Below are positions 10,811-25,162 of a DNA stretch of 25,406 bases, piece after piece. Position 1 is the first letter of the stretch; the number at the start of each line of letters is the position of its first letter. This DNA is from a virus. Its lineage: Duplodnaviria > Caudoviricetes. The position numbers and the translations under genes are program-made. Under the pieces are notes generated by a model. The model had not been told where the DNA came from and did no database searches. It worked only from the letters and a program-made list of their open reading frames with translations. The stretch is taken from IMG/VR virus record IMGVR_UViG_3300025676_000071, positions 1 to 25,406 of that record; one strand, 5' to 3'.

Positions 10811-11013
10811 TATTCTTTCTCATCCCCCGCTTTCCATTTCATGGACCATTTAAAGCTAGGAGTCTCAACCTCTTTTTTCTCTTTCTCACCAAGACAGGAA
10901 ACAGCGCTCCGTAGATTAGTCTGCAGAGTATCTATTACTACATATAGCTCAGATATGCGCTTGTCCTTTTGGAGGGACTGATCCACTATATATTGATAGT
11001 TATGATTCTTCAT
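10810..11013 (-). CDS. Hypothetical protein, 67 aa
   Basis: Fills the gap and is translationally coupled (TAATG) to terL. Confidence 0.6.
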   Translation of the reverse strand: MKNHNYQYIVDQSLQKDKRISELYVVIDTLQTNLRSAVSCLGEKEKKEVETPSFKWSMKWKAGDEKE

Positions 11014-12987: not shown

Positions 12988-12989
12988 GA

Positions 12990-14036
12990 TTATATGACCT
13001 CCGAGGGTCCAATTCCTAAAATTCTCGCCTTCCACTCTGGCATGCTTTCCAGTTTGTCCGCCTCTCTCTTTACGGCCTCCTTATGCATTTCTGCGATCAG
13101 CACCATGCGCTTGCGCTCATCTTCATCCTGGAAGACCTGAACTAAAGACAGAATATTAGCGTATTGGTCTTGCTTGGCATTGATTCTTTTTGCGCGATCT
13201 CCTTGCAGTTTTTGAATAAGGGACTCCATTCTTTTTTCACATTGATTATATTCGTCGCTTTTAGTTTTTAGTAGCTCGGCCAAGCGCACGGTCATTTCTT
13301 GTTGACTCTCAGCCTCATCAAACATTTTGTCTAGTTTGTTCATGGCCTTCTGAACGTGCTTTAGATTAATATAGTCTATGCAGACATTGATATAGAGATT
13401 TACTTCGTCTGTCGTTAAGTCAGACTTGTCGTGGATAGCTCGAATAAATTCTGCCTCGAAAAGAGTGCGATCACTAACTTCAAGATAAGCGCTAATTGTC
13501 TGAACGAAACGGGGGGAGGATAAGTATCTTCTCAAGGAATCGATGCAATCTCTTTGAGCAATGCTTAGTTTGTTGGGCTGCCAGGAGGCTCCAGCAACAT
13601 CGTTTACTTTATTAACTATTACTGTGGAGGTCCGGGGCGGTACATATTGGAAATTCTCCCCTTTTTCCCCATGATCGCCATGTGGGCCATGCTTATCTAG
13701 ATAATCCGCCACAACTAAAGTCTCCTTACTTAAGGGAGAAATAGAATCATCAGGAAAGAGGATGGACGCAATTTGATAAGGGTTCATGCCATCTCGGGCA
13801 TATTCCTCAGAGGACTCTTGTTGCTCCTCGGTGAGGTTGACGTTTTTTACTTTTTTATGTTTAGTTGTTTGAAAGTCCAGCTTCTCGGACACGCAAAAAG
13901 CACGCACTGCTCTCCCCTCTTTGCTTCTCCCGTCTATGGTGTCGTCCGTAAAGGTGGCCTTCGTCAATTCTATTAGATCGGGCATCTCTGCATGGTTGGC
14001 CCTAATGAAATCTTTTTGCTCTGCCGTTAAATTCAT
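12990..14036 (-). CDS. Hypothetical protein, HTH-like N-terminus and coiled-coil C-terminus (possible small terminase)
   Basis: ATGA overlap with the sigma gene; lies upstream of terL; the TerS role is inference only. Confidence 0.55.
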   Translation of the reverse strand: MNLTAEQKDFIRANHAEMPDLIELTKATFTDDTIDGRSKEGRAVRAFCVSEKLDFQTTKHKKVKNVNLTEEQQESSEEYARDGMNPYQIASILFPDDSISPLSKETLVVADYLDKHGPHGDHGEKGENFQYVPPRTSTVIVNKVNDVAGASWQPNKLSIAQRDCIDSLRRYLSSPRFVQTISAYLEVSDRTLFEAEFIRAIHDKSDLTTDEVNLYINVCIDYINLKHVQKAMNKLDKMFDEAESQQEMTVRLAELLKTKSDEYNQCEKRMESLIQKLQGDRAKRINAKQDQYANILSLVQVFQDEDERKRMVLIAEMHKEAVKREADKLESMPEWKARILGIGPSEVI

Positions 14037-14749
14037 TCGCAAATATCCTTTTCCTTTAATAGTCGTATAGCTTGTTGTTTAAACTTTTTACGCAGATTCT
14101 TTATTTGCTTGTATCCCGCCTTCCTTCCTCTCTCATTGCTTTTATAACCCAGTAGCTCCGCCACCTCTTCTTCGTCTTTATTTTTTATAAATAAGAGGTC
14201 ATATATGTAAAATTGCTTTGGAGGCAATGCCCGCTCCATTTCCATGTGGAGCTTTTTCTCGGCACGATCAATGTCAAAAGTATCCCCGTGCAATTTAAAG
14301 ATTTGGCCCGTTTCAGACTCCAAGGCAACGGCCATTTTTATATCGTACGCGGATTTTTTGGTTTGTTCCCATTTGGCGTAAAGAGGGCATTCCGAACACT
14401 GATTGCCGCTAGGAGTAAAGGCGCAGAGGGATCCTATTTTATCCCCGCCTCCCGGCACTCCTTGATTAAAAGGACAGTTTAGGCAGGGGCGCACAAAATT
14501 ACTATAGTGGTTGCGGAGAATATTCTTCATTTGGTTAGTAATGATTTTATTCACCCAGGGCTCTAACGGGCGCACTTGATCCCAGTGGTCCCATTTCTGG
14601 TGGATATGAGTCCTTATTATTTGGCAGACGTCATCAAAGTCAAACCACGCTACCGAGGTCAAGAACCACTTAGACCTCCTCTTGAGTAATTCGTGATCTA
14701 TCTGCTCCGCCTTGTCGGCGTATGTTGCTTTTTCAACCTTCGCTGACAT
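14033..14749 (-). CDS. Phage sigma70-family (ECF-like) factor with a Cys-rich insertion
   Basis: Region 2-like DFDDVCQ...WDHWD..RPLEPWVNKIITNQMKNILR; region 4-like LPPKQ...EEEVAELLGY. Confidence 0.75.
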   Translation of the reverse strand: MSAKVEKATYADKAEQIDHELLKRRSKWFLTSVAWFDFDDVCQIIRTHIHQKWDHWDQVRPLEPWVNKIITNQMKNILRNHYSNFVRPCLNCPFNQGVPGGGDKIGSLCAFTPSGNQCSECPLYAKWEQTKKSAYDIKMAVALESETGQIFKLHGDTFDIDRAEKKLHMEMERALPPKQFYIYDLLFIKNKDEEEVAELLGYKSNERGRKAGYKQIKNLRKKFKQQAIRLLKEKDICE

Positions 14750-15173
14750 CTCCCGATTGATCCGCTGAACTTTTGCATTCGTTTAAGGTCTCCTTGACTG
14801 CCTCGAATTTTGCGGCTGTATCGGGAGGTTGGGATTTGGCAGAGGCTTTCTTAGTTTTCTTCTTGGGTCTTGAGCCCTGTTTTCCTTTAGAGGGGGGCGC
14901 CCCTACTAAATCCGACAGGGACCCATAGGACCTTCCAACACCCCCATAGTCTCCATCTAGTTCATATTGGAGAGCATGTATGGTGGGAAGATGAGAGATA
15001 TCTGTTCCCTCCGGATCTTCCTCGTGGGTCTGCGCGGTAGCTAGACCCTGCTTGGGTATAGGAGCTTTAACTCCCTCTTTCCCTCTCTGGATGCCGCAAG
15101 AGGGGCAAAAGTTAGGTTGCTTTAGTAAGTACTCTATTTTACTCCCGCAGGTACTGCAATATTCAAAATTCAT
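14733..15173 (-). CDS. Zinc-ribbon protein, 146 aa
   Basis: CSTCG-x-PNFCPSCG N-terminal zinc ribbon. Confidence 0.75.
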   Translation of the reverse strand: MNFEYCSTCGSKIEYLLKQPNFCPSCGIQRGKEGVKAPIPKQGLATAQTHEEDPEGTDISHLPTIHALQYELDGDYGGVGRSYGSLSDLVGAPPSKGKQGSRPKKKTKKASAKSQPPDTAAKFEAVKETLNECKSSADQSGDVSEG

Positions 15174-15211
15174 AGTATATATAATATATACTGCAAGTCC
15201 TTATTATTCAA

Positions 15212-15841
15212 TTATAAAAGATAGCCCGCGATAACCCTCGCCTGCCTTTTCATGAAAACTAAGGTATCTGCTTCGAATTTAGAAGTTTGAGATTCCCCGG
15301 TTTGGAACCCTATCACATTTTGAACGGCGTAGTCCTTTATGTAATCCACTCCTAATATTCCAATGATTTTCCCATTAAGGGTTTTGATGGGGACATTATA
15401 AATACTCTTCACTCCTTTTAGCGCCAACAGTCCCGCAAAAGCATGATCGTCCATGTTCTCTACGTCAGTGTAATCAAACCGCTCTTTCTCGACGAGCTCA
15501 CTAATATAATGATGATAATTAGACACCCTGTGGTCTTGCGAATTCTGACACTCCGCACTAATTCCCTCTTGAACTATTTCGTAGGAGCAGCTAAACTTTT
15601 GCTGGCCTCGTCCGGAGAAATAACTGTGGCCATTATGGAACTCTAGAACATATGCCCGATCCGCATCCATCTCACACATAGTGTAATTGAGGGCTGTATA
15701 AACATTCTCGTTCTGCTTTGTCTCGGATTCAATAGTGGTACACTCTTTTGACACCAACCTATGACGCAGATATACAGCTCCCAACGTGGCCACACACGAC
15801 AGGATAGAGGCAGAAATGTAAGTGACGAGCTCCCACTCCAT
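15212..15841 (-). CDS. Single-TM + GAF-domain protein (holin T-like architecture)
   Basis: N-terminal hydrophobic helix then ADRAYVLEFHNG...GVKSIYNVPI...IIGILGVDY, a GAF pattern. Confidence 0.65.
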   Translation of the reverse strand: MEWELVTYISASILSCVATLGAVYLRHRLVSKECTTIESETKQNENVYTALNYTMCEMDADRAYVLEFHNGHSYFSGRGQQKFSCSYEIVQEGISAECQNSQDHRVSNYHHYISELVEKERFDYTDVENMDDHAFAGLLALKGVKSIYNVPIKTLNGKIIGILGVDYIKDYAVQNVIGFQTGESQTSKFEADTLVFMKRQARVIAGYLL

Positions 15842-16032
15842 TACCTAAAAGAATCGTAATCCTCTTTCTTGCAAAACTTAAGCATTTTAGTCCCATCTTC
15901 GTCAATGGCTGCAAAGGCGTATCTCAGTCGAATGTCTCCACTTTTGGTTTTGTTCTCTAAGAGCCTTTTTGTGACCTGATCGGTAGAAATCTGGACCTTC
16001 TTGCGCTTGCGGACATTATAGAATTCTATCAT
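15841..16032 (-). CDS. Small basic beta protein, 63 aa (Cc1/Cren7-like DNA binder?)
   Basis: FYNVRKRKKV...YAFAAIDEDGTKMLKF; coupled to the next gene; GTGTA upstream. Confidence 0.6.
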   Translation of the reverse strand: MIEFYNVRKRKKVQISTDQVTKRLLENKTKSGDIRLRYAFAAIDEDGTKMLKFCKKEDYDSFR

Positions 16033-16041
16033 GCTCTTTAA

Positions 16042-16758
16042 TTACACGTATTTTGTCCTCGAATTGAGGCGAGAAACGATAAATTTCAAAATTACGCTCC
16101 GCTTAATGTCATTTTCATCAAACTCAAAGCATTCTATCCCCTTGGACTGACTCTGGGCATCATTGAATAACTGATACATTCCCTGGAATCCAGTCTTCCC
16201 GTTGATATCGCTTTGCATGGTGTCTCCACAAATAAAGAGTTTGGTGTTGTGCCCTATTCTTGTAATAAGGGTAGTAAGCTCCTTAAAGGTAAAATTCTGT
16301 GCCTCGTCCGCAATAACGACTTTATCTATCCAATTTGCTCCCCGCAAGAAATTAATGGGCATAGATTGAATTCGCCCTTTTTCCAAAAGCTCTCTTTTGA
16401 GAGTATTGGTCTTGGGGAGCATCTCTTCCAGCTTATCATTCAAGGGTGCCATATAGGGATTGAATTTTTCTTCCACATCTCCCGGTAATGCCCCCATCCC
16501 TTTCTCTGCGCTTTCGATAATGGTTCGAACGTATAAGAGATCTAATTCCTCTCTCGCACTTAATAACCTTAGGGCGGAGTAGACCGCCATATACGTCTTG
16601 GTAGAACCGGCAGGACCGTTGATAAAGATAATCTTAGTCTTGGGGTCCAGCGCTGTAGAGAGTAGGCGTAATTGCTTTTCGTCCAGCTTCTTACACTGAA
16701 CGCTTATCTTTTGCGGTAACTGAGGAATGCGGAGTTTGGAACCTTTTTTTGCAGCCAT
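16042..16758 (-). CDS. phoH: PhoH-family ATPase
   Basis: GPAGSTKT, GALPGD..EK..PY..P..D, FLRG, IADEAQN, TRIG, GD..QSD, DIKRS. Confidence 0.92.
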   Translation of the reverse strand: MAAKKGSKLRIPQLPQKISVQCKKLDEKQLRLLSTALDPKTKIIFINGPAGSTKTYMAVYSALRLLSAREELDLLYVRTIIESAEKGMGALPGDVEEKFNPYMAPLNDKLEEMLPKTNTLKRELLEKGRIQSMPINFLRGANWIDKVVIADEAQNFTFKELTTLITRIGHNTKLFICGDTMQSDINGKTGFQGMYQLFNDAQSQSKGIECFEFDENDIKRSVILKFIVSRLNSRTKYV

Positions 16759-16767
16759 GTACTTTCT

Positions 16768-16800
16768 ATATTACACTCGTATCTCGTTTTAGTGTAATAT
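16768..16800. promoter_or_regulatory. Divergent pair of GTGTAAT motifs (putative late promoters)
   Basis: Perfect 10-bp inverted repeat ATATTACACT (16768-77) / AGTGTAATAT (16791-800), each 7-11 nt from a start codon. Confidence 0.6.
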
Positions 16801-16805
16801 TTAGT

Positions 16806-17003
16806 GTGAGTTTTTCGGAAATAATGACGGCTTTGTCTAGAATGTACAATAGTTACGACGCCACGTGCTGGTTAAATAAGCCTCGACGAGTCCTAAAGGG
16901 TGGATCCGTCGCCGATGCATTAAAGGACGGAAAGACAGGGGACGCTACTCTAATTCTCCAGAAAGAAGGGCGTTATAAAAAACTTTTCGGCGAGCGCCTC
17001 TGA
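16806..17003 (+). CDS. Hypothetical protein, about 65 aa (only plausible plus-strand gene)
   Basis: GTG start 7 nt after GTGTAAT; occupies otherwise empty space. Confidence 0.5.
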   Translation: MSFSEIMTALSRMYNSYDATCWLNKPRRVLKGGSVADALKDGKTGDATLILQKEGRYKKLFGERL

Positions 17004-17195
17004 TTTTACGAAGGGGCTCTGTTTTTTTTTAATCCGGCCATTTATTCCTAATAAACCGTTTCCAGGGGAGATTGAGAAATACCCCCCCACCGCCATGACC
17101 GAGTGACCACCCCAATTGAAATCCAAAAAATGGGGCTGGGAGTCACTTAACCCCCCCCTCCCCTCATTTTGTTGAACCATTTGTGTTTAAAATGT

Positions 17196-17429
17196 TTAAT
17201 GCCATGACGGGACTTGATCGCCGTGCAAGTCGATTTCTAGCTCTTCCAATTCATCCCAGATCTTTTCTTGCTCAAGATGGGCGTTGACGACTAACTGCTT
17301 CGCCGATTGGCAACCTGCATCAGCAAGCGGGGTTTCTCTAACTATAACAGCAAGAGCTTTATCCATTCGGATCTCTAGATCTGGATTGCGTTGAAAAGAT
17401 TGGTCGGCGTTTTGTGTGATACTGCTCAT
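17196..17429 (-). CDS. Small hypothetical early protein, 77 aa
   Basis: ORF track; 3 nt from the upstream stop. Confidence 0.7.
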   Translation of the reverse strand: MSSITQNADQSFQRNPDLEIRMDKALAVIVRETPLADAGCQSAKQLVVNAHLEQEKIWDELEELEIDLHGDQVPSWH

Positions 17430-17968: not shown

Positions 17969-18177
17969 GGTGCGTTTGTGTTCAGCTGGGATATGTGGTG
18001 CGCTTGTGTTCATCTGGTGCGTTTGTGCAAAACGCTTGCGTAAGTGCTTGACTATCAAGGACTTGGGCGGCGCCGGCAGGGCCCGAGGTGCAAGTCGTTG
18101 ATACTCAACAAGTTACGCCTTAAAGGGGGTGTGTTTAAGTTCGTCTGGTGCGTTTGTGTTTAAATGGTGCGTTTGCG
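17969..18177 (+). repeat. GGTGCGTTTGTGTT direct repeats
   Basis: Copies at 17969, 17997, 18016, 18147 and 18166 (degenerate at 18128). Confidence 0.85.
18042..18114. repeat. Paired-palindrome element 1
   Basis: AAGTGCTTGA-cta-TCAAGGACTT / 27-bp GC-rich linker / AAGTCGTTGA-tac-TCAACAAGTT; centres 18053 and 18103. Confidence 0.95.
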
Positions 18178-18179
18178 TA

Positions 18180-18211
18180 CAAAAAAACCCCCTGAGTCAT
18201 CAGGAGGTTTT
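18180..18211 (-). terminator. Intrinsic terminator
   Basis: Minus strand AAAACCTCCTGA-tgac-TCAGGGGGTTTTTTT. Confidence 0.75.
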
Positions 18212-18284
18212 GGTTGGAAAATGTTTTTTAGGTTATAGACTTATAAACTGCAATCGTTGCGACTAATATAATAATTTCCATTTT

Positions 18285-18638
18285 TCACCAGTTGCTTGGC
18301 ATTGTGCCGTGGTCAAGAAATTGTTCTGCCTCACGAACCGAGCAACGCATATCATCGCAAATGTCCGCGAGCTTTTCGTCTCGTGCTTCCAGAGCGGATT
18401 GACGATGGCGAGCGACCTTGCAAAATCTTGGGTCGCCTTGAGCAATTGCCATTTCCTTGAGCTGGGCAAACAAATCCCAAGAAACGAGATCTTGCTTGCA
18501 AAAGTTAAAAGCACATTGCTTGCGGGAAACGCCTTCGGTTTCCAAAATGCACCGAGCTTTTTTGTCGTTGCGTAGGCTTAAACTTGCTTTGATCAGTTTT
18601 TCTGATACTTTCGAGAATGTGATAAATAATAATTCCAT
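18285..18638 (-). CDS. Hypothetical protein, 117 aa
   Basis: ORF track; A-rich leader; followed by a terminator. Confidence 0.7.
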   Translation of the reverse strand: MELLFITFSKVSEKLIKASLSLRNDKKARCILETEGVSRKQCAFNFCKQDLVSWDLFAQLKEMAIAQGDPRFCKVARHRQSALEARDEKLADICDDMRCSVREAEQFLDHGTMPSNW

Positions 18639-18663
18639 AATGTTTTTTGTGTTCTTTCTGTTT

Positions 18664-18924
18664 TTACTTGGTTGTTTCAGTCTTTACAATACTGGCAAGC
18701 CTATCGTTGGCAAGGTGAAAAATGTTTTCTAAACGCTCGGCAACTTGCTCTGCAAAGAGTTTTGCGAATACGCCATCTGAAGCCATTTTTGAATTTGCGA
18801 GATTGTGCATCGGCTCAACAGCCTCGATGATGTCCCGAAGGGATTGGGCAGTTCTAAAAGTCTCCGAATCAGTTTTCCCGATCAGAGGCATGAGAGATGT
18901 TTTTTCTTTTCTAATTGTTATCAT
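18664..18924 (-). CDS. Hypothetical protein MITIRKEK..., 86 aa (leaderless)
   Basis: Start reassigned to ATG 18924, 6 nt below the -10. Confidence 0.75.
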   Translation of the reverse strand: MITIRKEKTSLMPLIGKTDSETFRTAQSLRDIIEAVEPMHNLANSKMASDGVFAKLFAEQVAERLENIFHLANDRLASIVKTETTK

Positions 18925-18930
18925 ACTATA

Positions 18931-18959
18931 AATATAGACCCGAAATGGCATAAAGTCAA
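18931..18959 (-). promoter_or_regulatory. sigma70-type promoter, class A
   Basis: TTGACT-N17-TATATT-N6-ATG. Confidence 0.85.
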
Positions 18960-19040
18960 GCGATTTGGCAAAAATAATTCAACTTTTGTTTGTGCACAAT
19001 TCTCCTGCGTTTGGTTGCATTAAACACAAATGGTGCAAGT

Positions 19041-19099
19041 GGTGCGTTTGTGTTCGTGTGGGGTATGTGGTGAGTTTGTGTTCAAGTGGTGAGTTTGTG
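19041..19099 (+). repeat. GGTG(C/A)GTTTGTG direct repeats
   Basis: Copies at 19041, 19069 and 19088; same spacing as 17969/17997/18016. Confidence 0.85.
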
Positions 19100-19113
19100 C
19101 AAAATGCTTACGC

Positions 19114-19186
19114 AAGTGCTTGACTATCAAGGACTTGGGCGGCGCCGGCAGCGCCCGTCCCCCAAGTAGTTGACTATCAACTACTT
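19114..19186. repeat. Paired-palindrome element 2
   Basis: AAGTGCTTGA-cta-TCAAGGACTT / 27 bp / perfect AAGTAGTTGA-cta-TCAACTACTT; centres 19125 and 19175. Confidence 0.95.
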
Positions 19187-19299
19187 ACGAAGCGAATCCA
19201 GTCCATTAGCACGATGCTCACGATGTATAAGCTGACCGAATACGCAACCGCATTGATGGGGTTGGCGTACTTCTCAAGATAGTATTGAAATGATTTCAT
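19177..19299 (-). CDS. Tiny hydrophobic peptide, 40 aa
   Basis: Hand-translated MKSFQYYLEKYANPINAVAYSVSLYIVSIVLMDWIRFVSS; TGA stop inside the palindrome. Confidence 0.55.
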   Translation of the reverse strand: MKSFQYYLEKYANPINAVAYSVSLYIVSIVLMDWIRFVSS

Positions 19300-19334
19300 T
19301 GTGTTTTTTGTGTTTTTGTGGTGAGATTATGTTT

Positions 19335-19505
19335 TTACCAAGCGTAAGAATGCTTGTGGTAAAGTCGTTTGTGGTCAATGCTGTAAACCGCACTTGCGAA
19401 ATAACAGGAATCCGCAAGGGCTTTCGCTGTTTCAAATTTCCAAAAGAATTTGCCTTCGCAAATAAACTTGGCTCGGCAAAGGTGTTTTAAGAAAAAGTGT
19501 TTCAT
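19335..19505 (-). CDS. Small hypothetical protein, 56 aa
   Basis: Hand-translated MKHFFLKHLCRAKFICEGKFFWKF...; 4 nt after the upstream stop. Confidence 0.55.
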   Translation of the reverse strand: MKHFFLKHLCRAKFICEGKFFWKFETAKALADSCYFASAVYSIDHKRLYHKHSYAW

Positions 19506-19509
19506 GGTC

Positions 19510-19686
19510 TTACCCTAAAGCAACTGCAAGAAACTTGGAGCGGTTAAACCCTGCGTTGAATTTCTCAAACTCATTCGCAAGGTCAACGGCGATTTGCTCA
19601 ATCTCTCGACTGGCGGATTCGTCAACTGCTGAGTTGAAGCGGTGAAAAAGTGCGTTGGCAATAGCGGTAAAATGTTTTCTTGTCAT
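19510..19686 (-). CDS. Small phage protein MTRKHF...FNRSKFL, 58 aa
   Basis: MTRKHF-x-x-IA...N-x-x-F-x-x-x-(R/K)FL pattern recalled from uncharacterised phage proteins; start at ATG 19686. Confidence 0.75.
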   Translation of the reverse strand: MTRKHFTAIANALFHRFNSAVDESASREIEQIAVDLANEFEKFNAGFNRSKFLAVALG

Positions 19687-19752
19687 AATGTTTTTTTTAG
19701 GTTGTGATGGTTTTGAATAAAAGTAAAATTGCAAATAAAATTATCGCTTCCA

Positions 19753-20049
19753 TTACTCGAAAATGCCTCGCATTTCTTCGCTTACTGCGTCCATGTCAAC
19801 GAGGTTTTCGTCTTGGTCAAAATCTTCCTCCTCTTTGTCGTTCTCGACTGCATCTAGGGAAACGAACTCTTGCTCGATTTCTTGCTTGGAAGCGTTTTGC
19901 ACGCCATGCTCGACAACGAGCTTTTCGGCGAGTGCCTCGCTTTTGAGGTTCTCGACCAGTCCCTTAAACTGGGAAGGAACGGCGTTGCCGTTGGCGTTAG
20001 CCAATGCGATTGCTTGGCGAATGTGGTTGAAGTCTTTCTCAATTATCAT
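19753..20049 (-). CDS. Acidic hypothetical protein, 98 aa (paralog of 21963-22190)
   Basis: ATG 6 nt below a class B promoter; shared C-terminus DFDxDENxxDMxxVSxxMRGxF. Confidence 0.8.
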   Translation of the reverse strand: MIIEKDFNHIRQAIALANANGNAVPSQFKGLVENLKSEALAEKLVVEHGVQNASKQEIEQEFVSLDAVENDKEEEDFDQDENLVDMDAVSEEMRGIFE

Positions 20050-20055
20050 AACTAC

Positions 20056-20083
20056 ATAATGACAGAATTTGACTAAACCGCAA
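20056..20083 (-). promoter_or_regulatory. Promoter, class B
   Basis: TTGCGG-N16-CATTAT with TGT before the -10, N6-ATG. Confidence 0.7.
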
Positions 20084-20116
20084 ACTAATTCGCATGGAGT
20101 AGCGCGTTTTGTTCAT

Positions 20117-20139
20117 AAGTGCCTGACTGTCAGAAAGAT
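20117..20139. repeat. Solitary degenerate palindrome box
   Basis: AAGTGCCTGA-ctg-TCAGAAAGAT. Confidence 0.55.
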
Positions 20140-20293
20140 AAAAATATTCTTTTTTCTGATCTTTTTTTCAAAACTTCGGAGCTTTTTGCATTCTCGACTT
20201 TTTTTGTGGCACAACTCTTTGACGCTCAATGGGTTACGCTAAAAAAATCCCTTCTAAAAACAGATTGGCACGCCATCTGTACGCCGCTTTTGT

Positions 20294-20366
20294 AACTTGT
20301 TGCCCGTCAAGGACTTGCGCCTCCGGCGCAGGGGCCGGTCCGCAAGTCGTTGATAACCAACGGCTT
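20294..20366. repeat. Paired-palindrome element 3
   Basis: AACTTGTTGC-ccg-TCAAGGACTT / 27 bp / AAGTCGTTGA-taa-CCAACGGCTT; centres 20305 and 20355. Confidence 0.95.
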
Positions 20367-20450
20367 AGGGAGGAGGTGGTGAGATTGTGTTTTTTTGGTG
20401 AGATTGTGCTTATTTGATGTTATTGGGTATTTCCATGTGCTGGGGCGCGC

Positions 20451-20473
20451 AAGTCATTGATATACAGTAACTT
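20451..20473. repeat. Solitary palindrome box
   Basis: AAGTCATTGA-tat-ACAGTAACTT. Confidence 0.7.
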
Positions 20474-20555
20474 AGAGAACTAAGTTAACTACAGCTATTA
20501 GCACACAAAAAATTACAAAAATTACAAAAAACATTATTTGCCCTATTAGATTACT

Positions 20556-20777
20556 TTATGCTTGTAATTCAAATACTCCTTGATCTGGTGATAGTCCAAG
20601 TTCCTCGGTTATCTCGATAAGCCTATTCTCATTTGCCATGACGCAATCCACGGAGACAATGCGATCATTGGGCTTAGTTCTATATAGTGGATTATGCTTA
20701 TTCATAAAGACGGGTCGCCCGTCCATAGTGGTAAGCACATAGGGATTTGATTTTTGCAACTCCTCTGTGATTTTCAT
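20556..20777 (-). CDS. Small hypothetical protein, 73 aa
   Basis: ORF track; 4 nt after the upstream stop. Confidence 0.7.
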   Translation of the reverse strand: MKITEELQKSNPYVLTTMDGRPVFMNKHNPLYRTKPNDRIVSVDCVMANENRLIEITEELGLSPDQGVFELQA

Positions 20778-20781
20778 TACT

Positions 20782-20934
20782 CTATTGTACCTTTATAAGT
20801 CGGAAACGACGAACTCCCGTAGCGTGAGCAAAGCGAGACTTTATAAGCCTATCTGCTTTGGGTAGCGGAAGCGGAAGGGATTCAGTCACCCAGACTGCTC
20901 CCGCTTTGTTGAGAATGCTTTGTAGTATATACAT
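20782..20934 (-). CDS. Small hypothetical protein MYILQS..., 50 aa
   Basis: Start reassigned to ATG 20934 after an A-rich leader, removing the overlap. Confidence 0.6.
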   Translation of the reverse strand: MYILQSILNKAGAVWVTESLPLPLPKADRLIKSRFAHATGVRRFRLIKVQ

Positions 20935-20951
20935 AGTTTGTGTTTTTTTGG

Positions 20952-21230
20952 TTAGCTTGAATGGTTCAAGGGTTTTTCGATTGCAGGAATTAAATTCCAT
21001 GCAGGGTGACCCTTTGGGACTTTAGCAGACTGGACACCGAAGTCCCGAAAGGTAATGTCTACCACATCCCAAACATCGGAGACTTGAGCCATCCATTGGT
21101 CTTTTGTTGGTGCATCGACTTGATAGGGTAAAGTCTGGTAAGTGCCGAGCTTGTCACCATTGGTGAGCGTCATGTCAATGCGAGCTTGACGGAAGTTAAT
21201 ATAGGGAATGTTCTTTTTAATCTTAATCAT
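20952..21230 (-). CDS. Hypothetical protein, 92 aa (leaderless)
   Basis: ATG 6 nt below the -10. Confidence 0.75.
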   Translation of the reverse strand: MIKIKKNIPYINFRQARIDMTLTNGDKLGTYQTLPYQVDAPTKDQWMAQVSDVWDVVDITFRDFGVQSAKVPKGHPAWNLIPAIEKPLNHSS

Positions 21231-21236
21231 GGTTTA

Positions 21237-21265
21237 ATTCTCTCAAATTTTGGATGAAATGTCAA
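21237..21265 (-). promoter_or_regulatory. sigma70-type promoter, class A
   Basis: TTGACA-N17-GAGAAT-N6-ATG. Confidence 0.8.
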
Positions 21266-21426
21266 CCCCTAATTACAATCCAATCGGACTGCATATCTGC
21301 CACGAAATCGTCAGCGTCTGCTTGAGACGGAGCAGAAATCGTAGCGAATTGTGGTTTGCCCGTCACACGATGGACTGCCACGACATTGAAGTTGAGAAGC
21401 GGAAGGAGTTCTATTGAATGTGTCAT
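21262..21426 (-). CDS. Small hypothetical protein MTHSIELL..., 54 aa (leaderless)
   Basis: Start reassigned to ATG 21426. Confidence 0.7.
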   Translation of the reverse strand: MTHSIELLPLLNFNVVAVHRVTGKPQFATISAPSQADADDFVADMQSDWIVIRG

Positions 21427-21432
21427 GTAATA

Positions 21433-21461
21433 AAGATACGCCCATTTGCCCACAAAGTCAA
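21433..21461 (-). promoter_or_regulatory. sigma70-type promoter, class A
   Basis: TTGACT-N17-TATCTT-N6-ATG. Confidence 0.8.
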
Positions 21462-21518
21462 GCCTACAGAGCAAAAAAATAAAAAAGATTTGGCACGCTA
21501 TCTGTACCCCGCATTTGT

Positions 21519-21591
21519 AACTTGTTGTCTGTCAAGGACTTGCGCCTCCGGCGCAGGGCCCGGCCCACAAGTCGTTGATAGATAACGACTT
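21519..21591. repeat. Paired-palindrome element 4
   Basis: AACTTGTTGT-ctg-TCAAGGACTT / 27 bp / AAGTCGTTGA-tag-ATAACGACTT; centres 21530 and 21580. Confidence 0.95.
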
Positions 21592-21603
21592 ACAGAGGTA
21601 AAA

Positions 21604-21687
21604 TCAGGATAAGGCAAACTGAATGTTCATTATAAGCTGGACGAATAGCAAAACCGCTATTGCATAAAGAATGTATTTATTTTTCAT
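21604..21687 (-). CDS. Tiny hydrophobic peptide, 27 aa
   Basis: Hand-translated MKNKYILYAIAVLLFVQLIMNIQFALS. Confidence 0.55.
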   Translation of the reverse strand: MKNKYILYAIAVLLFVQLIMNIQFALS

Positions 21688-21710
21688 TATTTGGTTATTT
21701 TGTGTTTTTT

Positions 21711-21911
21711 CTAAAGTTCCTCGGTTGACATGATGAATCCGTCAACATCAACATTTTGGATTTTTTCCTTTTTAGCTAGTTTTTTTGCGATTCTCATTGC
21801 CCTTGCTTTTCCCTTTACTTCGTCAATAACATCAAAGAAGCCCAAAGCGTCTGTGAAAACAATTTGAAACCATTGTGGAAAGTTTGCGTTTTTTGCGATT
21901 TTAATAATCAT
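21711..21911 (-). CDS. Small hypothetical protein, 66 aa
   Basis: ORF track; TATATT 7 nt upstream of the ATG. Confidence 0.75.
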   Translation of the reverse strand: MIIKIAKNANFPQWFQIVFTDALGFFDVIDEVKGKARAMRIAKKLAKKEKIQNVDVDGFIMSTEEL

Positions 21912-21962
21912 TTGTAATAATATAGTAAATTGCTAGAATTGAGAGGAATATAATAATCTCCA

Positions 21963-22190
21963 TTATGCAAACGCCCCACGCATTTGGGGCGAAACATTTT
22001 CCATGTCCGTTTCGTTTTCGTCATTATCGAAATCGACTTTTCCCTCATGGTCGAGAGCGTCAAGATGGTCTGCTTCATCACGAACATCTTCTTGCGTTGG
22101 CGGTAAAAGCTCTTCAATGAAAGCACCTTGTTGAGCAAGGACTGCTTGGTGAGCTTGGCGAATGAGTTCTATTCTTTCTGATTGTGTCAT
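21963..22190 (-). CDS. Acidic hypothetical protein, 75 aa (paralog of 19753-20049; leaderless)
   Basis: ATG 6 nt below the -10; shared C-terminal motif. Confidence 0.8.
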   Translation of the reverse strand: MTQSERIELIRQAHQAVLAQQGAFIEELLPPTQEDVRDEADHLDALDHEGKVDFDNDENETDMENVSPQMRGAFA

Positions 22191-22196
22191 AATATA

Positions 22197-22225
22197 AATC
22201 TAGTCGAGTTTAAGGAAAATGTCAA
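22197..22225 (-). promoter_or_regulatory. sigma70-type promoter, class A
   Basis: TTGACA-N17-TAGATT-N6-ATG; -10 to ATG identical to the 17646 promoter. Confidence 0.85.
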
Positions 22226-22250
22226 GTTTTATGTGAACCTTTTTCTCTCT

Positions 22251-22355
22251 CCCTTTCGGGTTGTAGGCGTGTGCTGACGCCTCGTTGTTCGATGCATTGG
22301 ATGGTCTTACGAATGCCTTATACGGACTTACATCTGCCATTCTTCGCAATGCATC
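22251..22355 (-). ncRNA. Candidate structured RNA downstream of the tRNA-like element
   Basis: GATGCATTG/CAATGCATC 9-bp stem, GGCGT-N6-ACGCC hairpin, CCC-GAAA-GGG GNRA hairpin. Confidence 0.45.
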
Positions 22356-22367
22356 TACAGAAAAAGC

Positions 22368-22490
22368 AGGGCTTAGAGGGAATTGAACCCCCATCTCTCG
22401 CTTATCTCCACAGTTGATCAAACCGCCCACTACTTTATCTAGAATTTCGTGGTGAAGGAGGGCGAGGCTTTACCATTAAGCTATAAGCCC
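22368..22490 (-). tRNA. tRNA-like RNA (123 nt) with an insert of about 50 nt in the anticodon arm; anticodon not assignable
   Basis: Acceptor GGGCTTA/TAAGCCC; D-arm TA-GCTT-AATGGTA-AAGC; anticodon stem CTCGC/GCGAG; T-arm GGGGG-TTCAATT-CCCTC; no encoded CCA. Confidence 0.75.
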
Positions 22491-22516
22491 ACAATAAATT
22501 TTAAAGAACAGACTCC

Positions 22517-22544
22517 ATTATGACACCTCCTGCCAGAAGTGCAA
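22517..22544 (-). promoter_or_regulatory. Promoter, class B, driving the tRNA-like RNA
   Basis: TTGCAC-N16-CATAAT with TGT before the -10; no ATG at +1. Confidence 0.75.
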
Positions 22545-22576
22545 GATAAAAAATGCCCATTTAGGAAAATAGTTAT

Positions 22577-22649
22577 AACTCGCTGGCTGTCAAGGACTTG
22601 CGCCTCCGGCGCAGGGCCCGGCCCACAAGTCGTTGATGTTTAAGGACTT
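22577..22649. repeat. Paired-palindrome element 5
   Basis: AACTCGCTGG-ctg-TCAAGGACTT / 27 bp / AAGTCGTTGA-tgt-TTAAGGACTT; centres 22588 and 22638. Confidence 0.95.
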
Positions 22650-22681
22650 ACAACGGAATTGGCGTGCCAAAATCAAGACAC

Positions 22682-22713
22682 AAAAAACCCCCACCTTTCC
22701 GAAGGGTGGGGGT
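22682..22713 (-). terminator. Intrinsic terminator
   Basis: ACCCCCACC...TTCG...GGTGGGGGT followed by a T-run on the minus strand. Confidence 0.85.
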
Positions 22714-22729
22714 CTATTTGAACTTCAAC

Positions 22730-22801
22730 CTAACCGCAAAATACTATTGAGTACATTATCACCCAAGGCAGAAGGATAAGTAAATCCCAATACTCACTCA
22801 C
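22730..22801 (-). CDS. Tiny hydrophobic peptide, 23 aa
   Basis: Hand-translated from GTG: MSEYWDLLILLPWVIMYSIVFCG; overlaps the upstream stop by 8 nt. Confidence 0.4.
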   Translation of the reverse strand: MSEYWDLLILLPWVIMYSIVFCG

Positions 22802-23048
22802 CTAATGCCCCTTCTATTACTGGACGAGCAACGAGATTACGAACGGCATAACCGCTCTTTCCGTATTGCTTGCCACGCACGACTGACTTAAAGGTACGAC
22901 TTGAAAAGTCATAATAAGCCGAGACGGCAGAACCTGCCTTGTTTATATAAGTGAACCAAAGCTTTTCGCCTACTCGCTCAACACCTTGAGGTTCGTACTT
23001 GGCAACTGCGAGTGCCTTGTCTGTTATGAATGAGAACATTGATTGCAT
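22794..23048 (-). CDS. Hypothetical protein, 84 aa
   Basis: ORF track; AGAGG RBS-like sequence upstream. Confidence 0.75.
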   Translation of the reverse strand: MQSMFSFITDKALAVAKYEPQGVERVGEKLWFTYINKAGSAVSAYYDFSSRTFKSVVRGKQYGKSGYAVRNLVARPVIEGALGE

Positions 23049-23069
23049 TGTTTTTTTCCTCTGTTTAGT

Positions 23070-23297
23070 TTATAGTTCAGTAAGTAATTCGTCAAGACGC
23101 TCAACATCAAGAGCGGAGTCATTATAGGCAACCCTATCGGGGGTTTCGGTATATCCGACTTCTCGCATGGCATCAACAAAAACTTGATAGCTTCCGCATT
23201 CTTTTGCGAACTCGTACATCCCTTCATCGTTGCCTATCCACAAGGCGACATTCCAAGTTGCGTGGTTTTTCCATCCGTTGTAAGTGGTATCAGTCAT
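23070..23297 (-). CDS. Small phage protein of the YNGW-x-N-x-x-TWNVALW type, 75 aa
   Basis: YNGWKNHATWNVALWIGNDEG...ETPD motif recalled from uncharacterised aquatic phage proteins. Confidence 0.8.
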   Translation of the reverse strand: MTDTTYNGWKNHATWNVALWIGNDEGMYEFAKECGSYQVFVDAMREVGYTETPDRVAYNDSALDVERLDELLTEL

Positions 23298-23451
23298 TGT
23301 TCTTGCCTATGGTATAAGGTGAGTGGTGGAGAAGTCGGTCAATCTTCTGTTCGAGAATCCTAACCGCTTGAACGCATTTCTCAAGAGTCATGGCAGGAGA
23401 GATTTTCGTGCCGTTCTTGAGAACGATATAGTTGTTTAATTGAGTATCCAT
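23290..23451 (-). CDS. Small hypothetical protein, 53 aa (leaderless)
   Basis: Hand-translated MDTQLNNYIVLKNGTKISPAMTLEKCVQAVRILEQKIDRLL...; ATG 6 nt below the -10. Confidence 0.65.
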   Translation of the reverse strand: MDTQLNNYIVLKNGTKISPAMTLEKCVQAVRILEQKIDRLLHHSPYTIGKNND

Positions 23452-23457
23452 TTTAGT

Positions 23458-23486
23458 ATTCTCCCAAATTATGCCTGATTTGTCAA
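23458..23486 (-). promoter_or_regulatory. sigma70-type promoter, class A
   Basis: TTGACA-N17-GAGAAT-N6-ATG. Confidence 0.8.
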
Positions 23487-23825
23487 CCCTAATTCGTTGT
23501 TTTTTTCATCTCTTCCAATATAGAGATTGGCAATGAATTGTGCCCGAAAGTCTCCTTGAAGGTTAGCCATAAGCTCGGTTAGTTGCTCCTCGGTTTGGTG
23601 TCCTAGAACATCATCGTATGTCGCGAGGGGAATCATGTTGTCATTATGGAAAACGGCAACTTCATAAGTGCCTTCCGAAACATTTCCATAGAGTCCGCTT
23701 CCCTCTCCTATGTTGGAGACGACGGAAATCTCCGTGTTGTTGCCCAAGTCGAGCTTGGCTTGAACGCCATTCGGGTGGTTGGCGTGTGAGTTGAAAACTA
23801 AGTCATTGAAGTTTTTGATTGTCAT
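23469..23825 (-). CDS. Hypothetical protein MTIKNFNDLVF..., 118 aa (leaderless)
   Basis: Start reassigned to ATG 23825; ISVV...YG...YEVAV...DDVLG pattern recalled from phage proteins. Confidence 0.8.
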   Translation of the reverse strand: MTIKNFNDLVFNSHANHPNGVQAKLDLGNNTEISVVSNIGEGSGLYGNVSEGTYEVAVFHNDNMIPLATYDDVLGHQTEEQLTELMANLQGDFRAQFIANLYIGRDEKNNELGLTNQA

Positions 23826-23831
23826 AACTAT

Positions 23832-23859
23832 ATAGTGACAGAATTTGAGCATAACGCAA
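23832..23859 (-). promoter_or_regulatory. Promoter, class B
   Basis: TTGCGT-N16-CACTAT with TGT before the -10, N6-ATG; near-copy of 20047-20083. Confidence 0.7.
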
Positions 23860-23890
23860 GCTTTTTCTTTGCTAATGCAAAAATAGTCCT

Positions 23891-23963
23891 AAATCGTTGA
23901 CTGTCAACGACTTGGGGGCCGGCGCCAGCGCCGGCTGTGCAACTCCTTGATTCTCAAGGACTT
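23891..23963. repeat. Paired-palindrome element 6
   Basis: AAATCGTTGA-ctg-TCAACGACTT / 27 bp / AACTCCTTGA-ttc-TCAAGGACTT; centres 23902 and 23952. Confidence 0.95.
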
Positions 23964-24078
23964 ACAAAACCTCTACCCACCAATAACCTTCTGACTCTGT
24001 GACGATGGTGTCCCAGCCATTTTGCCCTTTCTGATAAGCAAAAGTCCTGGCGGCGTGTTCGTATACAAACTTATACAT
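23962..24078 (-). CDS. Tiny protein, 38 aa
   Basis: Hand-translated MYKFVYEHAARTFAYQKGQNGWDTIVTESEGYWWVEVL; AGGAGG upstream, TAATG coupling, TAA overlaps the palindrome edge. Confidence 0.6.
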   Translation of the reverse strand: MYKFVYEHAARTFAYQKGQNGWDTIVTESEGYWWVEVL

Positions 24079-24506
24079 TATATGTTTCCTCCTAATCCAA
24101 GTCGTTCCTTCATGCTCGTTAAGTCATTAAGAATATCAAGCAAGATGTCCTCGGCAGATTCAAGAGAATACGGAGGCGTACCATACAAGATATTATTGCG
24201 AACTATTTGCTCGATCTCTCCTAGAATGTTAAGTTGCTCCTCACTCCTCTCATAGTCTCCGTCGGGATTGGAATATCTTTCCAAAAAAGAACTCCAGTCG
24301 TTTTGAGCTTTCATGTGACGCTCGGCATTCTCTAGATTGCGTTGCTCAAAGCGATGTTCCATGATTTCATCCATTGTAACCACAGGCTTTTCTTCGTCAA
24401 GTAGTGTTTTATTGAATCTTGCCTCTTCTAATTTTTCCTCAGCGAATTCCCTTTTCAACTCGGCGTATTCCCTGGCGTCTTGTTCGTTTTCTGCGTAACT
24501 GCTCAT
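24078..24506 (-). CDS. Acidic helical hypothetical protein, 142 aa
   Basis: ORF track; 3 nt after the upstream stop. Confidence 0.8.
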   Translation of the reverse strand: MSSYAENEQDAREYAELKREFAEEKLEEARFNKTLLDEEKPVVTMDEIMEHRFEQRNLENAERHMKAQNDWSSFLERYSNPDGDYERSEEQLNILGEIEQIVRNNILYGTPPYSLESAEDILLDILNDLTSMKERLGLGGNI

Positions 24507-24509
24507 AGT

Positions 24510-24740
24510 TTATAATCCTTGATTTTCGTAATAGTTAAGTGTGCGTTGCCATTCCTCCTCATAAGCCTCGTAGTCTTCGCCAAATCCTGCTTCTTGCACT
24601 CTGTGCATATACTCATAATGCTCTTGCTCGGATTGTGCGAACATCTCTAAGTCCCGAATCTCGGAAGCGTAGCGTTCTCGTACATCATCGTACTGAGCCC
24701 CGAATACATGGTCTGCGTGTTCTCTTGCTGTATCAAACAT
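24510..24740 (-). CDS. Very acidic Tyr/Glu-rich protein, 76 aa
   Basis: ORF track; 4 nt after the upstream stop. Confidence 0.75.
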   Translation of the reverse strand: MFDTAREHADHVFGAQYDDVRERYASEIRDLEMFAQSEQEHYEYMHRVQEAGFGEDYEAYEEEWQRTLNYYENQGL

Positions 24741-24744
24741 AATT

Positions 24745-24951
24745 TTAGAATCTTAGGTTTTTGAGTGATGTGTTTTTCTTGAGCCATCTGCGGAGTGGAT
24801 GAAATGCTTTGGCTGAGAAGTGAGCAAGATACTGCTGTCCGTTCTTGGCGAGAATCATGTGACCACTTGCCGTTGCTCGAATCTCCTCGATGTCGGGACA
24901 TTTCTTCAGTTGTTTCATTACTTTTCGATTACCGCTTTCTGAATGTTTCAT
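24745..24951 (-). CDS. Small basic protein, possible HicA-like fold, 68 aa (leaderless)
   Basis: Start reassigned to ATG 24951; helix-EIRATASGHMIL-KNG-YLAH-helix layout. Confidence 0.6.
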   Translation of the reverse strand: MKHSESGNRKVMKQLKKCPDIEEIRATASGHMILAKNGQQYLAHFSAKAFHPLRRWLKKNTSLKNLRF

Positions 24952-24957
24952 GGTTCC

Positions 24958-24985
24958 AGTATGACAGACTGGGCATGGAATGCAA
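24958..24985 (-). promoter_or_regulatory. Promoter, class B
   Basis: TTGCAT-N16-CATACT with TGT before the -10, N6-ATG. Confidence 0.75.
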
Positions 24986-25016
24986 CAAAAAAAAAGACCA
25001 ATTAGAAGATAGTCAT

Positions 25017-25089
25017 AACTCGTTGTCTTACAACAAGTTGGGAGGCGGCTCCTGGCGCCCGCGCCCAAGTCGTTGACTGAGAGGGACTT
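25017..25089. repeat. Paired-palindrome element 7
   Basis: AACTCGTTGT-ctt-ACAACAAGTT / 27 bp / AAGTCGTTGA-ctg-AGAGGGACTT; centres 25028 and 25078. Confidence 0.95.
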
Positions 25090-25162
25090 ACGCCGGCCAG
25101 AACCAGACCACAAGAAACAAAATCACAAACGGCAACGCAATAGCTGTTATTAGTTCAAACAT
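25088..25162 (-). CDS. Tiny hydrophobic peptide, 24 aa
   Basis: Hand-translated MFELITAIALPFVILFLVVWFWPA; TAA overlaps the palindrome edge. Confidence 0.6.
   Translation of the reverse strand: MFELITAIALPFVILFLVVWFWPA

Follow-up and report, generated by a model that had tools for sequence, protein, structure and literature searches.

Integrons are arrays of small unrelated genes split by imperfect palindromic repeats (attC); their cassettes are mostly single promoterless genes, served by a cognate tyrosine recombinase and a hairpin of the attC bottom strand. Among phages, the Mu Pe and lambda pL promoters are activated by an upstream IHF site, and SPO1, as well as T5, has a long terminal repeat that carries pre-early, host-takeover genes. 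According to the available part of 10.1101/382655, IHF binds the consensus WATCARnnnnTTR, the DNA being kinked at two points 9 bp apart, and the A-tract of the opposite half-site is optional, present in some sites only. The accessible part of PMC6524683 defines the UP element and indicates that IHF can counteract H-NS silencing. PMC2839356 describes the PeSL cassettes of T4-type phages, also the subject of PMC4122927, as shuffling units made of a promoter plus a terminator stem-loop; IHF has 0 occurrences in PMC2839356.

The DNA analysed here (the window: 25,406 nt of a Caudoviricetes record, IMGVR_UViG_3300025676_000071) comes from an uncultured marine phage whose small accessory gene units are separated by twin sites (Table 1), and it is mostly at these sites that gene order differs in related phages. 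A repeat search returned one family with 7 copies in the window, the number given in the original prediction; start-to-start intervals of 1072, 1180, 1225, 1058, 1314 and 1126 bp agreed exactly with it, as did the 50 bp separating the box centres in all seven pairs. The element, first described as 73 bp long, is real, but a 25-bp outline (YAA...TTR) suits its boxes better and brings its length to 75 bp. The spacers are 80% GC. Element 2 sits in a 259-bp block sharing 80% identity with the one that surrounds element 1, and a PWM scan of the window gave extra single boxes beside element 3 (centres 20224 and 20462). The 14 boxes scored 25.8 to 33.9, compared with 15.8 for the next site and 20.1 for the best in 200 shuffles. 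Since the PWM was trained on the 14 boxes that it scored, the independent check is its scan of relatives: of 80 loci retrieved through homology of the terminase, 14 had twin arrays, many of the loci without an array being also without upstream DNA. A strict box pattern matched 4 to 30 times in 9 of 10 long records, and 0 to 1 times in the reversed control.

Table 1. Features of the window (strand given where assigned; promoters are predictions).
Feature	Position	Strand	Remarks
Context	8948..16758	-	terminase large subunit (8948-10810), ERCC4-type nuclease, GDP-mannose dehydratase, sigma-70-like factor, PhoH
Contig-depth step-up zone	16500..17400		putative left edge (long direct terminal repeat)
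~21 small ORFs, 53-142 aa	17196..25362	-	in units between elements; mostly without family matches
Twin element 1	18041..18115		centres 18053, 18103; 25-bp boxes flanking a 25-bp GC-rich spacer
Predicted promoter	18922..18959	-	166 bp from element 2
Twin element 2	19113..19187		centres 19125, 19175
Predicted promoter	20047..20083	-	222 bp from element 3
Twin element 3	20293..20367		centres 20305, 20355
Predicted promoter	21424..21461	-	69 bp from element 4
Twin element 4	21518..21592		centres 21530, 21580
Predicted internal promoter	22188..22225	-	consensus TTGACA; no element adjoining
tRNA-like gene	22368..22490	-	~50-nt insertion in anticodon arm
Twin element 5	22576..22650		centres 22588, 22638
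Intrinsic-terminator-like hairpin, T tract	22688..22705	-	just upstream of element 5 (gene direction)
DUF7249/phrog_871 ORF	23070-23297	-	
Predicted leaderless sigma-70-type promoter	23823..23859	-	43 bp from element 6
Twin element 6	23890..23964		centres 23902, 23952
Predicted leaderless sigma-70-type promoter	24949..24985	-	43 bp from element 7; TTGC-type -35, T-tract upstream, ATG 6 nt past -10
Twin element 7	25016..25090		centres 25028, 25078
phrog_25588 ORF	25183-25362	-	

Twin arrays mark a large uncultured phage clade; our literature searches found no paper on this twin-array family. The array runs past the window, since a near-identical contig (G006/L003) has 10 elements, with later intervals of 1128, 1631 and 2612 bp. 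Over 30 arrays, unit length has a median of 1083 bp and a 10-90% range of 336 to 1559 bp. Because of this variation, the period of ~1.2 kb is not strict. Support is lacking for a special meaning of this period, as it is for one of 50 bp: twin spacing is fixed inside one genome, and lies anywhere from 40 to 60 bp between lineages. Spacer sequence drifts (mean identity 0.5-0.9), while spacer length stays fixed. About 20 boxes are present per array, confined to one block of 10-15 kb per genome, and the box is kept in phages whose terminases are only 38 to 68% identical to that of the window. The genes had been thought to share a single orientation. This holds for the window, where they are on the minus strand, but in 10 of 31 arrays each strand has two or more clustered genes, mostly converging.

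Each box is the IHF consensus WATCARnnnnTTR, mirror-doubled around its W, so the claim that the motif matches nothing known falls. In 272 half-sites from 136 distinct boxes, the well-kept positions were C (88%), A (100%), R (100%), T (98%), T (99%) and R (99%); these six, together with the 4-nt gap, are exactly CARnnnnTTR. The W, A and T of WATCAR were kept in only 76, 52 and 78% of the halves, and the nnnn gap, of lower information, yet shows a preference (IC 0.4-0.9), meaning that another dimeric protein is a possible binder. One half with at most one mismatch to the consensus was found in 117 of the 136 boxes. The dyad of the box sits on W; with the right kink of the IHF-DNA structure at the A|R step, W would also be the pseudo-dyad of that structure. 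The half consensus is the one of known IHF sites, such as H' and H1 of lambda attP. Unlike these sites, the boxes are fully two-fold symmetric, with TTR on both sides: the A-tract was not found, and a mirror copy of the consensus stands in its place. They also differ in being always paired, at a lineage-fixed distance with a GC-rich spacer between, and, unlike lambda attP, ~10 elements stand in one block of the phage genome and no integrase was found. Complementarity of the two halves was 7.81 out of 12, with no excess over shuffled halves (7.98) or shuffling within lineages (8.10). As the halves do not covary, we take the boxes for sites read by a protein on duplex DNA and not for hairpins, which lends support to the paired sites for a dimeric protein that had been predicted. 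The DNABII family (PF00216) was not found in 5 + 21 phage records, 5 of them called complete.

A link between elements and early promoters had also been proposed, and the register and direction of predicted promoters across arrays argue for it. Around 280 distinct twins, 154 promoter-plus-ATG motifs read away from the twin and 15 toward it. Among those reading away, 28 start, with their -35, at 43/44 bp from the nearer box, compared with a mean of 0.76 at other positions. This register holds over five twin spacings (41, 42, 48, 50 and 53), and flips with gene direction: in the convergent array of G020, the left arm has it on the + side, the right arm on the - side. The 30 register cases occur in 11 of 30 genomes, with a linker identity between genomes of only 0.51. 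Register promoters carry a TTGC -35 in 11 of 13 cases, against 15 of 49 for distant promoters (p=0.0009), and their upstream AT content is 0.81, against 0.68. This p-value, like the one given below for gene order, is optimistic because shared phylogeny makes the promoters, adjacencies and boxes non-independent. The arrangement resembles that of IHF-activated sigma-70 promoters, in which the site is upstream of an AT-rich, UP-element-type tract at -40 to -60. A downstream promoter was present at 134 of 214 elements, 26 of them in the 43/44 register, and other lineages place promoters at other distances. In the window, the register is found at 3 of 7 elements (at element 5, a -35-like hexamer that precedes the tRNA-like gene begins 44 bp away from the centre of the nearer box), and element-linked promoters sit outside the 75-bp repeat, at 43 to 222 bp. 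No convincing 10.5-bp periodicity emerged overall (R 0.16-0.22, near the 5% threshold and at most equal to the value at an 8-bp period). A duplicate of the promoter at 18922..18959 precedes element 1, starting at 17887, and internal promoters resembling the one at 22188..22225 begin at 23486, 21265 and 17674. TTGACA matches inside boxes, at 23907 and 22593, may be due to chance.

The elements had been considered module boundaries, and comparing cassette order across relatives bears this out. Gene adjacency was kept in 85 of 382 element gaps (22%), 102 of 200 promoter-only gaps (51%) and 279 of 477 operonic gaps (58%). Counting distinct adjacencies, 7 of 70 were kept at elements versus 17 of 37 at promoter-only gaps (p=5e-5). 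By comparison with PMC2839356, both systems have repeated elements between genes in ORFan-rich regions. In both, these are tied to sigma-70 promoters and are places where gain, loss or shuffling of gene units occurs, probably by homologous recombination. The differences are that the conserved core here is a twin protein-type site without hairpin covariation, that the promoter is outside the 75-bp repeat, that no terminator stem-loop is inside the elements, hairpins being separate, and that the phage is not T4-type (GenBank terminase matches at most 26% identical). The best reading is that the elements double as PeSL-like shuffling seams, and that the array is not an integron. The 75-bp elements would provide patches of homology to ordinary, RecA-type recombination, and this would move, delete or invert gene units and homogenise spacing inside a lineage; a RecA-family gene was found in 4 of 5 complete records.

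Contig depth to the right of about 17 kb, relative to the left, was 1.58, 1.86, 2.48 and 2.26 in the four runs, all four showing the rise; this depth is taken from contigs and is no copy number. It suggests a long terminal repeat, of which only the left edge is seen. In the consulted part of 10.1101/866236, the T5 long terminal repeat similarly has small genes of unknown function and host-type promoters beside a structural module; the apparent depth doubling here, and convergent transcription in many relatives, add to the likeness. The repeat region of T5 differs in having DnaA boxes and palindromes in a few non-coding blocks, and no twin IHF-type module per gene unit.

On balance we lean towards a role of the twin boxes in docking two host IHF/HU-family dimers, which would bend the DNA and help early promoters to fire. 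The element would be a rigid pair of mirror-symmetric IHF-consensus sites around a GC-rich spacer, the bend would lie upstream of predicted early promoters, and host RNA polymerase would fire them more readily. The binder would be a host DNABII protein, none being found in the phages. The nearer of the two boxes, whose centre is some 78-79 bp upstream of the start, may activate or de-silence the promoter, through UP-element delivery or a block on silencer spread, and the array block would be a long terminal repeat, first into the cell. In the part of 10.1101/2023.05.26.542337 available, type I-F CRISPR leaders likewise have two IHF sites that fold a short DNA into a scaffold for a second protein; here, in contrast, the module is repeated before gene units, and the window showed neither CRISPR repeats nor Cas genes. 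Two features are unaccounted for by IHF acting on promoters: the need for two boxes, and a spacer of fixed length and drifting sequence.

Confinement of ~20 boxes to one block, probably in a terminal repeat, could also mean that IHF-type boxes mainly fold, protect or pull in the first-entering end, or titrate host IHF, the register being a by-product of block duplication. That 80 of 214 elements have no promoter detected within 220 bp, and that twin spacings of 40-60 bp impose no single helical phase, would fit, and so would the T5 terminal repeat, with conserved host-protein sites and a hypothesised role in injection (10.1101/866236, consulted in part). We hold this to be unlikely, given the one-sidedness of the promoters, a register kept over five spacings and diverged linkers and flipping with gene direction, and the irregular intervals over the clade. 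A similarly low probability goes to the boxes being operators, with a convergent likeness to IHF sites. Their dimeric regulator, encoded by the phage (or a non-DNABII protein of the host), would repress early units or set their timing. Perfect two-fold symmetry is typical of homodimer operators, E. coli IHF being a heterodimer on an asymmetric site; self-symmetry of the spacers exceeds that of shuffles (0.53 vs 0.37); L196 has a small sigma-70-region-4 HTH gene immediately past its array; and lineage-specific rigid spacing suggests a co-evolving phage partner, which perhaps reads the GC-rich spacer. However, the exact CARnnnnTTR match, the persistence of the box across such divergent terminases and the position of the boxes, mostly upstream of promoters and not over them, speak against such operators, and no candidate protein was identified.

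Site-specific recombination, integron-like or invertase-like, would explain why gene order breaks preferentially at elements and why the strand of one gene, relative to the terminase, is opposite in the window and G020, and one contig joint in run X7 does lead from 23917, inside element 6, back to 20938. We consider it highly improbable all the same. As in integrons, small unrelated genes are arrayed between imperfect palindromic repeats, but the search for a recombinase gave no tyrosine enzyme (PF00589) in 5 + 21 records, 5 called complete, and no serine enzyme (PF00239) in the 5 complete records. The units are multi-gene, have promoter motifs of their own and also change internally, as the operonic figure above indicates, and the repeats, unlike attC, lack hairpin covariation. 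The X7 joint has a 31-nt side, a depth of 2.45 and 88% likeness, with its other end not at an element, and no element-to-element joint, of the kind expected from PeSL-type mini-circles, is among the 8 listed for 4 runs, contigs dropping rare variants. Most improbable, and disfavoured, is an action of the elements as hairpins, either in RNA or in single-stranded DNA (as terminators, processing sites or cruciforms): every box is palindromic and the GC-rich spacer partly self-complementary, but the box halves have no compensatory pairing, no Rfam family was found at the elements in the window, and hairpins of terminator type stand apart from the elements, 50 of 214 having one upstream (16 on the control strand).

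Docking of host IHF-type dimers can be extended into a bolder proposal, which we regard as doubtful: that this clade programs its own chromatin on entry, the first-injected terminal repeat recruiting ~20 IHF-type dimers of the host, arranged as rigid pairs. A scaffold built by each pair would at the same time activate the promoter that follows, stop silencers from spreading and fold the end that is entering; a phage protein might read the GC-rich spacer and set lineage-specific spacing; and the symmetric modules would be portable, orientation-free sockets for swapping early gene units. IHF sites, repeat-mediated shuffling and terminal-repeat early modules are each already known singly. If the IHF reading is true, an abundant clade of large aquatic phages would use a host nucleoid protein as a general enhancer and boundary of the earliest genes, in a fixed twin geometry absent from the literature searched. 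It would offer naturally evolved symmetric IHF-type sites and a directly testable case of incoming phage DNA escaping silencing before any phage protein exists. In uncultured phages, the twin motif would be a sequence tag by which to locate an accessory (possibly anti-defence) island and the probable end of the genome, and PeSLs would be joined by a second case of modular evolution with regulatory repeats as its seams.

The units had been described as a promoter, small genes and sometimes a terminator. Promoter and small genes, on the minus strand, were indeed found; terminator-like hairpins stand only before some elements. The portal/capsid region lies further left of the terminase-to-PhoH block, and the best GenBank matches of the terminase are from Bacillus/Clostridium phages. 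The tRNA-like gene, which ARAGORN did not detect, is the first feature of the unit following element 5.

A repeat search recovered seven copies of the element in the window at the intervals originally noted, and the distance between the paired boxes is exactly 50 bp in each. Every box spans 25 bp, with the consensus YAAGTCGTTGAT-W-ATCAACGACTTR, and the two boxes of a twin enclose a GC-rich spacer of 25 bp. On a near-identical contig (G006), the array reaches ten elements, all at 50 bp, and the later intervals are longer. Arrays were found again in relatives: a PWM made from the window boxes detected twins in 14 of 80 terminase-anchored loci, and a variable-gap scan of viral contigs yielded 96 stretches, with arrays in most of the longer ones. 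A relative of the window terminase was encoded by 19 of the 21 longer array-bearing records searched, one of the 21 having come from terminase homology in the first place. In long records, nearly all boxes are confined to a single block some 10-15 kb long. One element, searched with BLASTN in 50,697 GenBank phage records, had zero matches at E≤1, and Rfam recognised no family at the elements, its sole match being a tRNA. We conclude that the twin element is a real, clade-wide feature.

Genomes keep a constant twin spacing (the genome's modal value is seen in 198 of 225 elements), which ranges from 40 to 60 bp across lineages, with peaks at 41-42, 45-48, 50-53 and 58 bp. This means that 50 bp is a lineage trait and no universal geometry, and a fixed 50-bp distance is rejected as the function. 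The 1.2-kb period had to be abandoned as the function as well: it is loose, with a median unit length of 1083 bp and a 10-90% range of 336-1559 bp. For unit length, within-genome spacing, promoter distance and register, 9 of 39 loci were excluded as duplicates or for unclear orientation. The spacer is constant in length and variable in sequence (mean identity 0.5-0.9 inside genomes), and spacers are more self-symmetric than their shuffles. Some arrays, in the compared records L079, L034 and L202, carry three or four consecutive boxes in 38-60 bp steps instead of simple pairs.

The motif had at first been matched to neither integron cassettes nor the regulatory cassettes of T4-type phages. Each box half matches the IHF consensus WATCARnnnnTTR, which 10.1101/382655 gives together with a 9-bp spacing of the IHF kinks (for IHF properties, see also PMC6907758). 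A set of 272 half-sites was drawn from terminase-related loci, where they belong to 136 distinct boxes. Their most conserved positions are exactly C-A-R and T-T-R plus the four-base gap (88-100%), conservation is weaker at W, A and T (76, 52 and 78%), and in 117 of the 136 boxes at least one half departs from the consensus at no more than one position. The centre of the palindrome is the W. If the right kink sits at the A|R step, as in the IHF-H' structure, the 9-bp kink spacing places the protein pseudo-dyad on the W, and the box then resembles a DNABII site made symmetric. Among DNABII proteins, Hbb is a homodimer precedent. Pairing from half to half amounted to 7.81 of 12 positions, compared to 7.98 expected (8.10 within lineages), i.e. 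no covariation, which favours a site on duplex DNA over a hairpin. A gene of the DNABII family (IHF/HU, PF00216) was present in 0 of 26 phage records, five of them called complete. This makes a host protein the simplest binder, and the one that we predict from the sequences; binding of the symmetric boxes by a different dimeric regulator is possible.

Promoter motifs of sigma-70 type precede the genes of the array. The ATG mostly follows 6-7 nt past the -10, so their transcripts are predicted to be leaderless; this apparent leaderlessness, found in the window and in related arrays, may help narrow the host. Around 280 distinct twins, 154 motifs are directed away from the element versus 15 toward it, and 28 begin 43 or 44 bp away from the centre of the nearer box, versus 0.76 per other position. 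This register was found in 11 of 30 genomes, at twin spacings of 41, 42, 48, 50 and 53 bp, with linkers that are 51% identical between genomes and have a T- or A-tract at their end. The centre of the nearer box is predicted to lie about 78-79 bp ahead of the start. A TTGC -35 is present in 11 of 13 register promoters versus 15 of 49 distant ones, and the AT content of the upstream tract is 0.81 versus 0.68, a pattern that fits promoters with UP elements and the help of an activator (PMC6524683 defines UP elements and describes anti-silencing by IHF). In the convergent array of contig G020, the register is found on the plus side for the left arm and switches to the minus side for the right arm. 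It concerns just 26 of 134 promoter-bearing elements, out of 214 (3 of 7 in the window), and no convincing helical periodicity of box-to-promoter distances was seen over all distances. A 259-bp block is duplicated in the window, at 80% identity; besides an element and a promoter, it contains short repeats of GGTG(C/A)GTTTGTG type.

Summed contig depth, which is no copy number, rose by factors of 1.58, 1.86, 2.48 and 2.26 from the part left of 16 kb to the part right of about 17 kb in four of four runs (three of them from named studies and one from an unnamed study; one of the runs may be the source of the window DNA), and ratios inside the stretch used for finding the runs were 1.7-2.0. This step, seen at the left edge of the array only, suggests that a long direct terminal repeat, adjoining the PhoH-terminase module, contains the array. 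A non-coding segment with G/C runs and A/T tracts coincides with the step, and is a candidate packaging or genome-end site. In SPO1, early genes likewise lie in a long direct terminal repeat. The pre-early genes of T5 are also located in its terminal repeat, according to 10.1101/866236, and CtrA sites in terminal repeats are described in PMC9437464.

As the original prediction implied, gene order across relatives is lost more at the elements. Adjacency was retained at 85 of 382 element gaps (22%), 102 of 200 promoter-only gaps (51%) and 279 of 477 operonic gaps (58%). Gene calling covered both strands of 31 arrays, and the comparisons are phylogenetically non-independent. Counted as distinct adjacencies, retention was 7/70, 17/37 and 37/79 respectively, and the trend persisted when redundancy was cut more strictly and when one strand was tested. 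At least two clustered genes were present on each strand in 10 of the 31 arrays, and one window gene has, with respect to the terminase, the reverse orientation in G020. The co-occurring recombinase that had been envisaged did not turn up, neither of tyrosine type (0 of 26 records) nor of serine type (0 of 5 complete records); a RecA-family gene is encoded by 4 of the 5 complete records. Element-to-element joints were also absent among the contig joints listed for the four runs, where one weak joint begins inside element 6 and has its other end away from any element. The lack of an integrase in these records and of a hairpin signal speaks against an integron-like system, and the arrays do not belong with integrons. 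Compared to PeSL, the promoter and terminator stem-loop cassettes of T4-type phages, the elements would act as a similar seam, but the repeat itself has no promoter or terminator and falls outside that class. By analogy with the homologous shuffling described in PMC2839356, we infer that gene units are exchanged by PeSL-like homologous shuffling rather than in the integron manner.

The element would thus work both like an IHF-assisted promoter module and, by analogy, like a PeSL seam. We lean slightly towards a reading in which a host IHF-type protein would bend the DNA at the boxes, this bending would shape and activate the early promoters of the probable terminal repeat, and shuffling of gene units would be a second effect. 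Searches of the open-licence PMC and bioRxiv literature brought up no account of phage early regions with arrays of twin IHF-type sites; the Matilda preprint (10.64898/2026.10.21.760668) deals with kb-scale inverted repeats and mentions IHF 0 times.

The window is a 25.4-kb piece of a large uncultured tailed phage, known from a virus record, and encodes on its minus strand the terminase large subunit, a capsid-like protein, an ERCC4-type nuclease, GDP-mannose dehydratase, a sigma-70-like factor and PhoH. The DNA-labelled runs containing its DNA are marine or seawater metagenomes, and no RNA run is listed with it. Terminase relatives at 60-84% identity are frequent in IMG/VR (264 stretches, the largest records being of 211 kb). 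A terminase tblastn against GenBank phage records returned 95 records, all remote and none reaching 80% query coverage; cultured phages are remote from this one. Neither 740 sigma-factor homolog matches nor an Atlas search with the capsid pointed to a host, and a PVC-group host would be a guess at most. A perfect-palindrome scan of GTDB genomes, too strict to be informative on the host, gave 4 loci (L192-L195) on 3 short Bacteroidota MAG contigs, with ~1 kb between boxes in one; these contigs may come from a phage of another group with single boxes. Two terminase homologs, with open frames of 1033 (G013) and 1061 aa (G029), were each matched in two pieces and probably carry inteins. The 807-aa head-module protein of the window has a PAP2 phosphatase-like domain (residues 137-224), fused to a probable protease/scaffold region.

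Coordinates of individual features in the window and in compared records
Feature	Location	Strand	Remark
807-aa head-module protein	window 3579-6002	-	
Non-coding segment	window 16760-17200		
Apparent leaderless early genes	window 17000-25400		
Duplicated block	window 17859-18117 and 18931-19189		
Gene in opposite orientation in G020	window 18285-18638		
tRNA-like gene	window 22368-22490	-	Rfam RF00005, 50.2 bits; missed by ARAGORN
Terminase homolog, G013	19349-22396		
Terminase homolog, G029	35817-38987		
Cargo examples, L196	9533-11435 and 14784-15233	-	
75-aa HTH protein, L196	18888-19115	-	

The commonest cargo clade-wide consists of GP88 (PF17338), DUF932 (PF06067) and L5 gp82-like (PF25735) proteins. 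For 22 array proteins, NCBIfam gave zero matches and PADLOC a single weak one, of GP88 to PDC-M19B (E 4e-4). Directly past the array of record L196 is encoded a 75-aa protein with a sigma-70 region-4 HTH, a candidate anti-sigma factor or regulator. The tRNA-like gene sits behind the 44-bp promoter motif of element 5; its anticodon arm has an insertion of ~50 nt, which forms an extended arm in the fold (whole-sequence z -0.89), and the gene is possibly an intron-containing or decoy tRNA.
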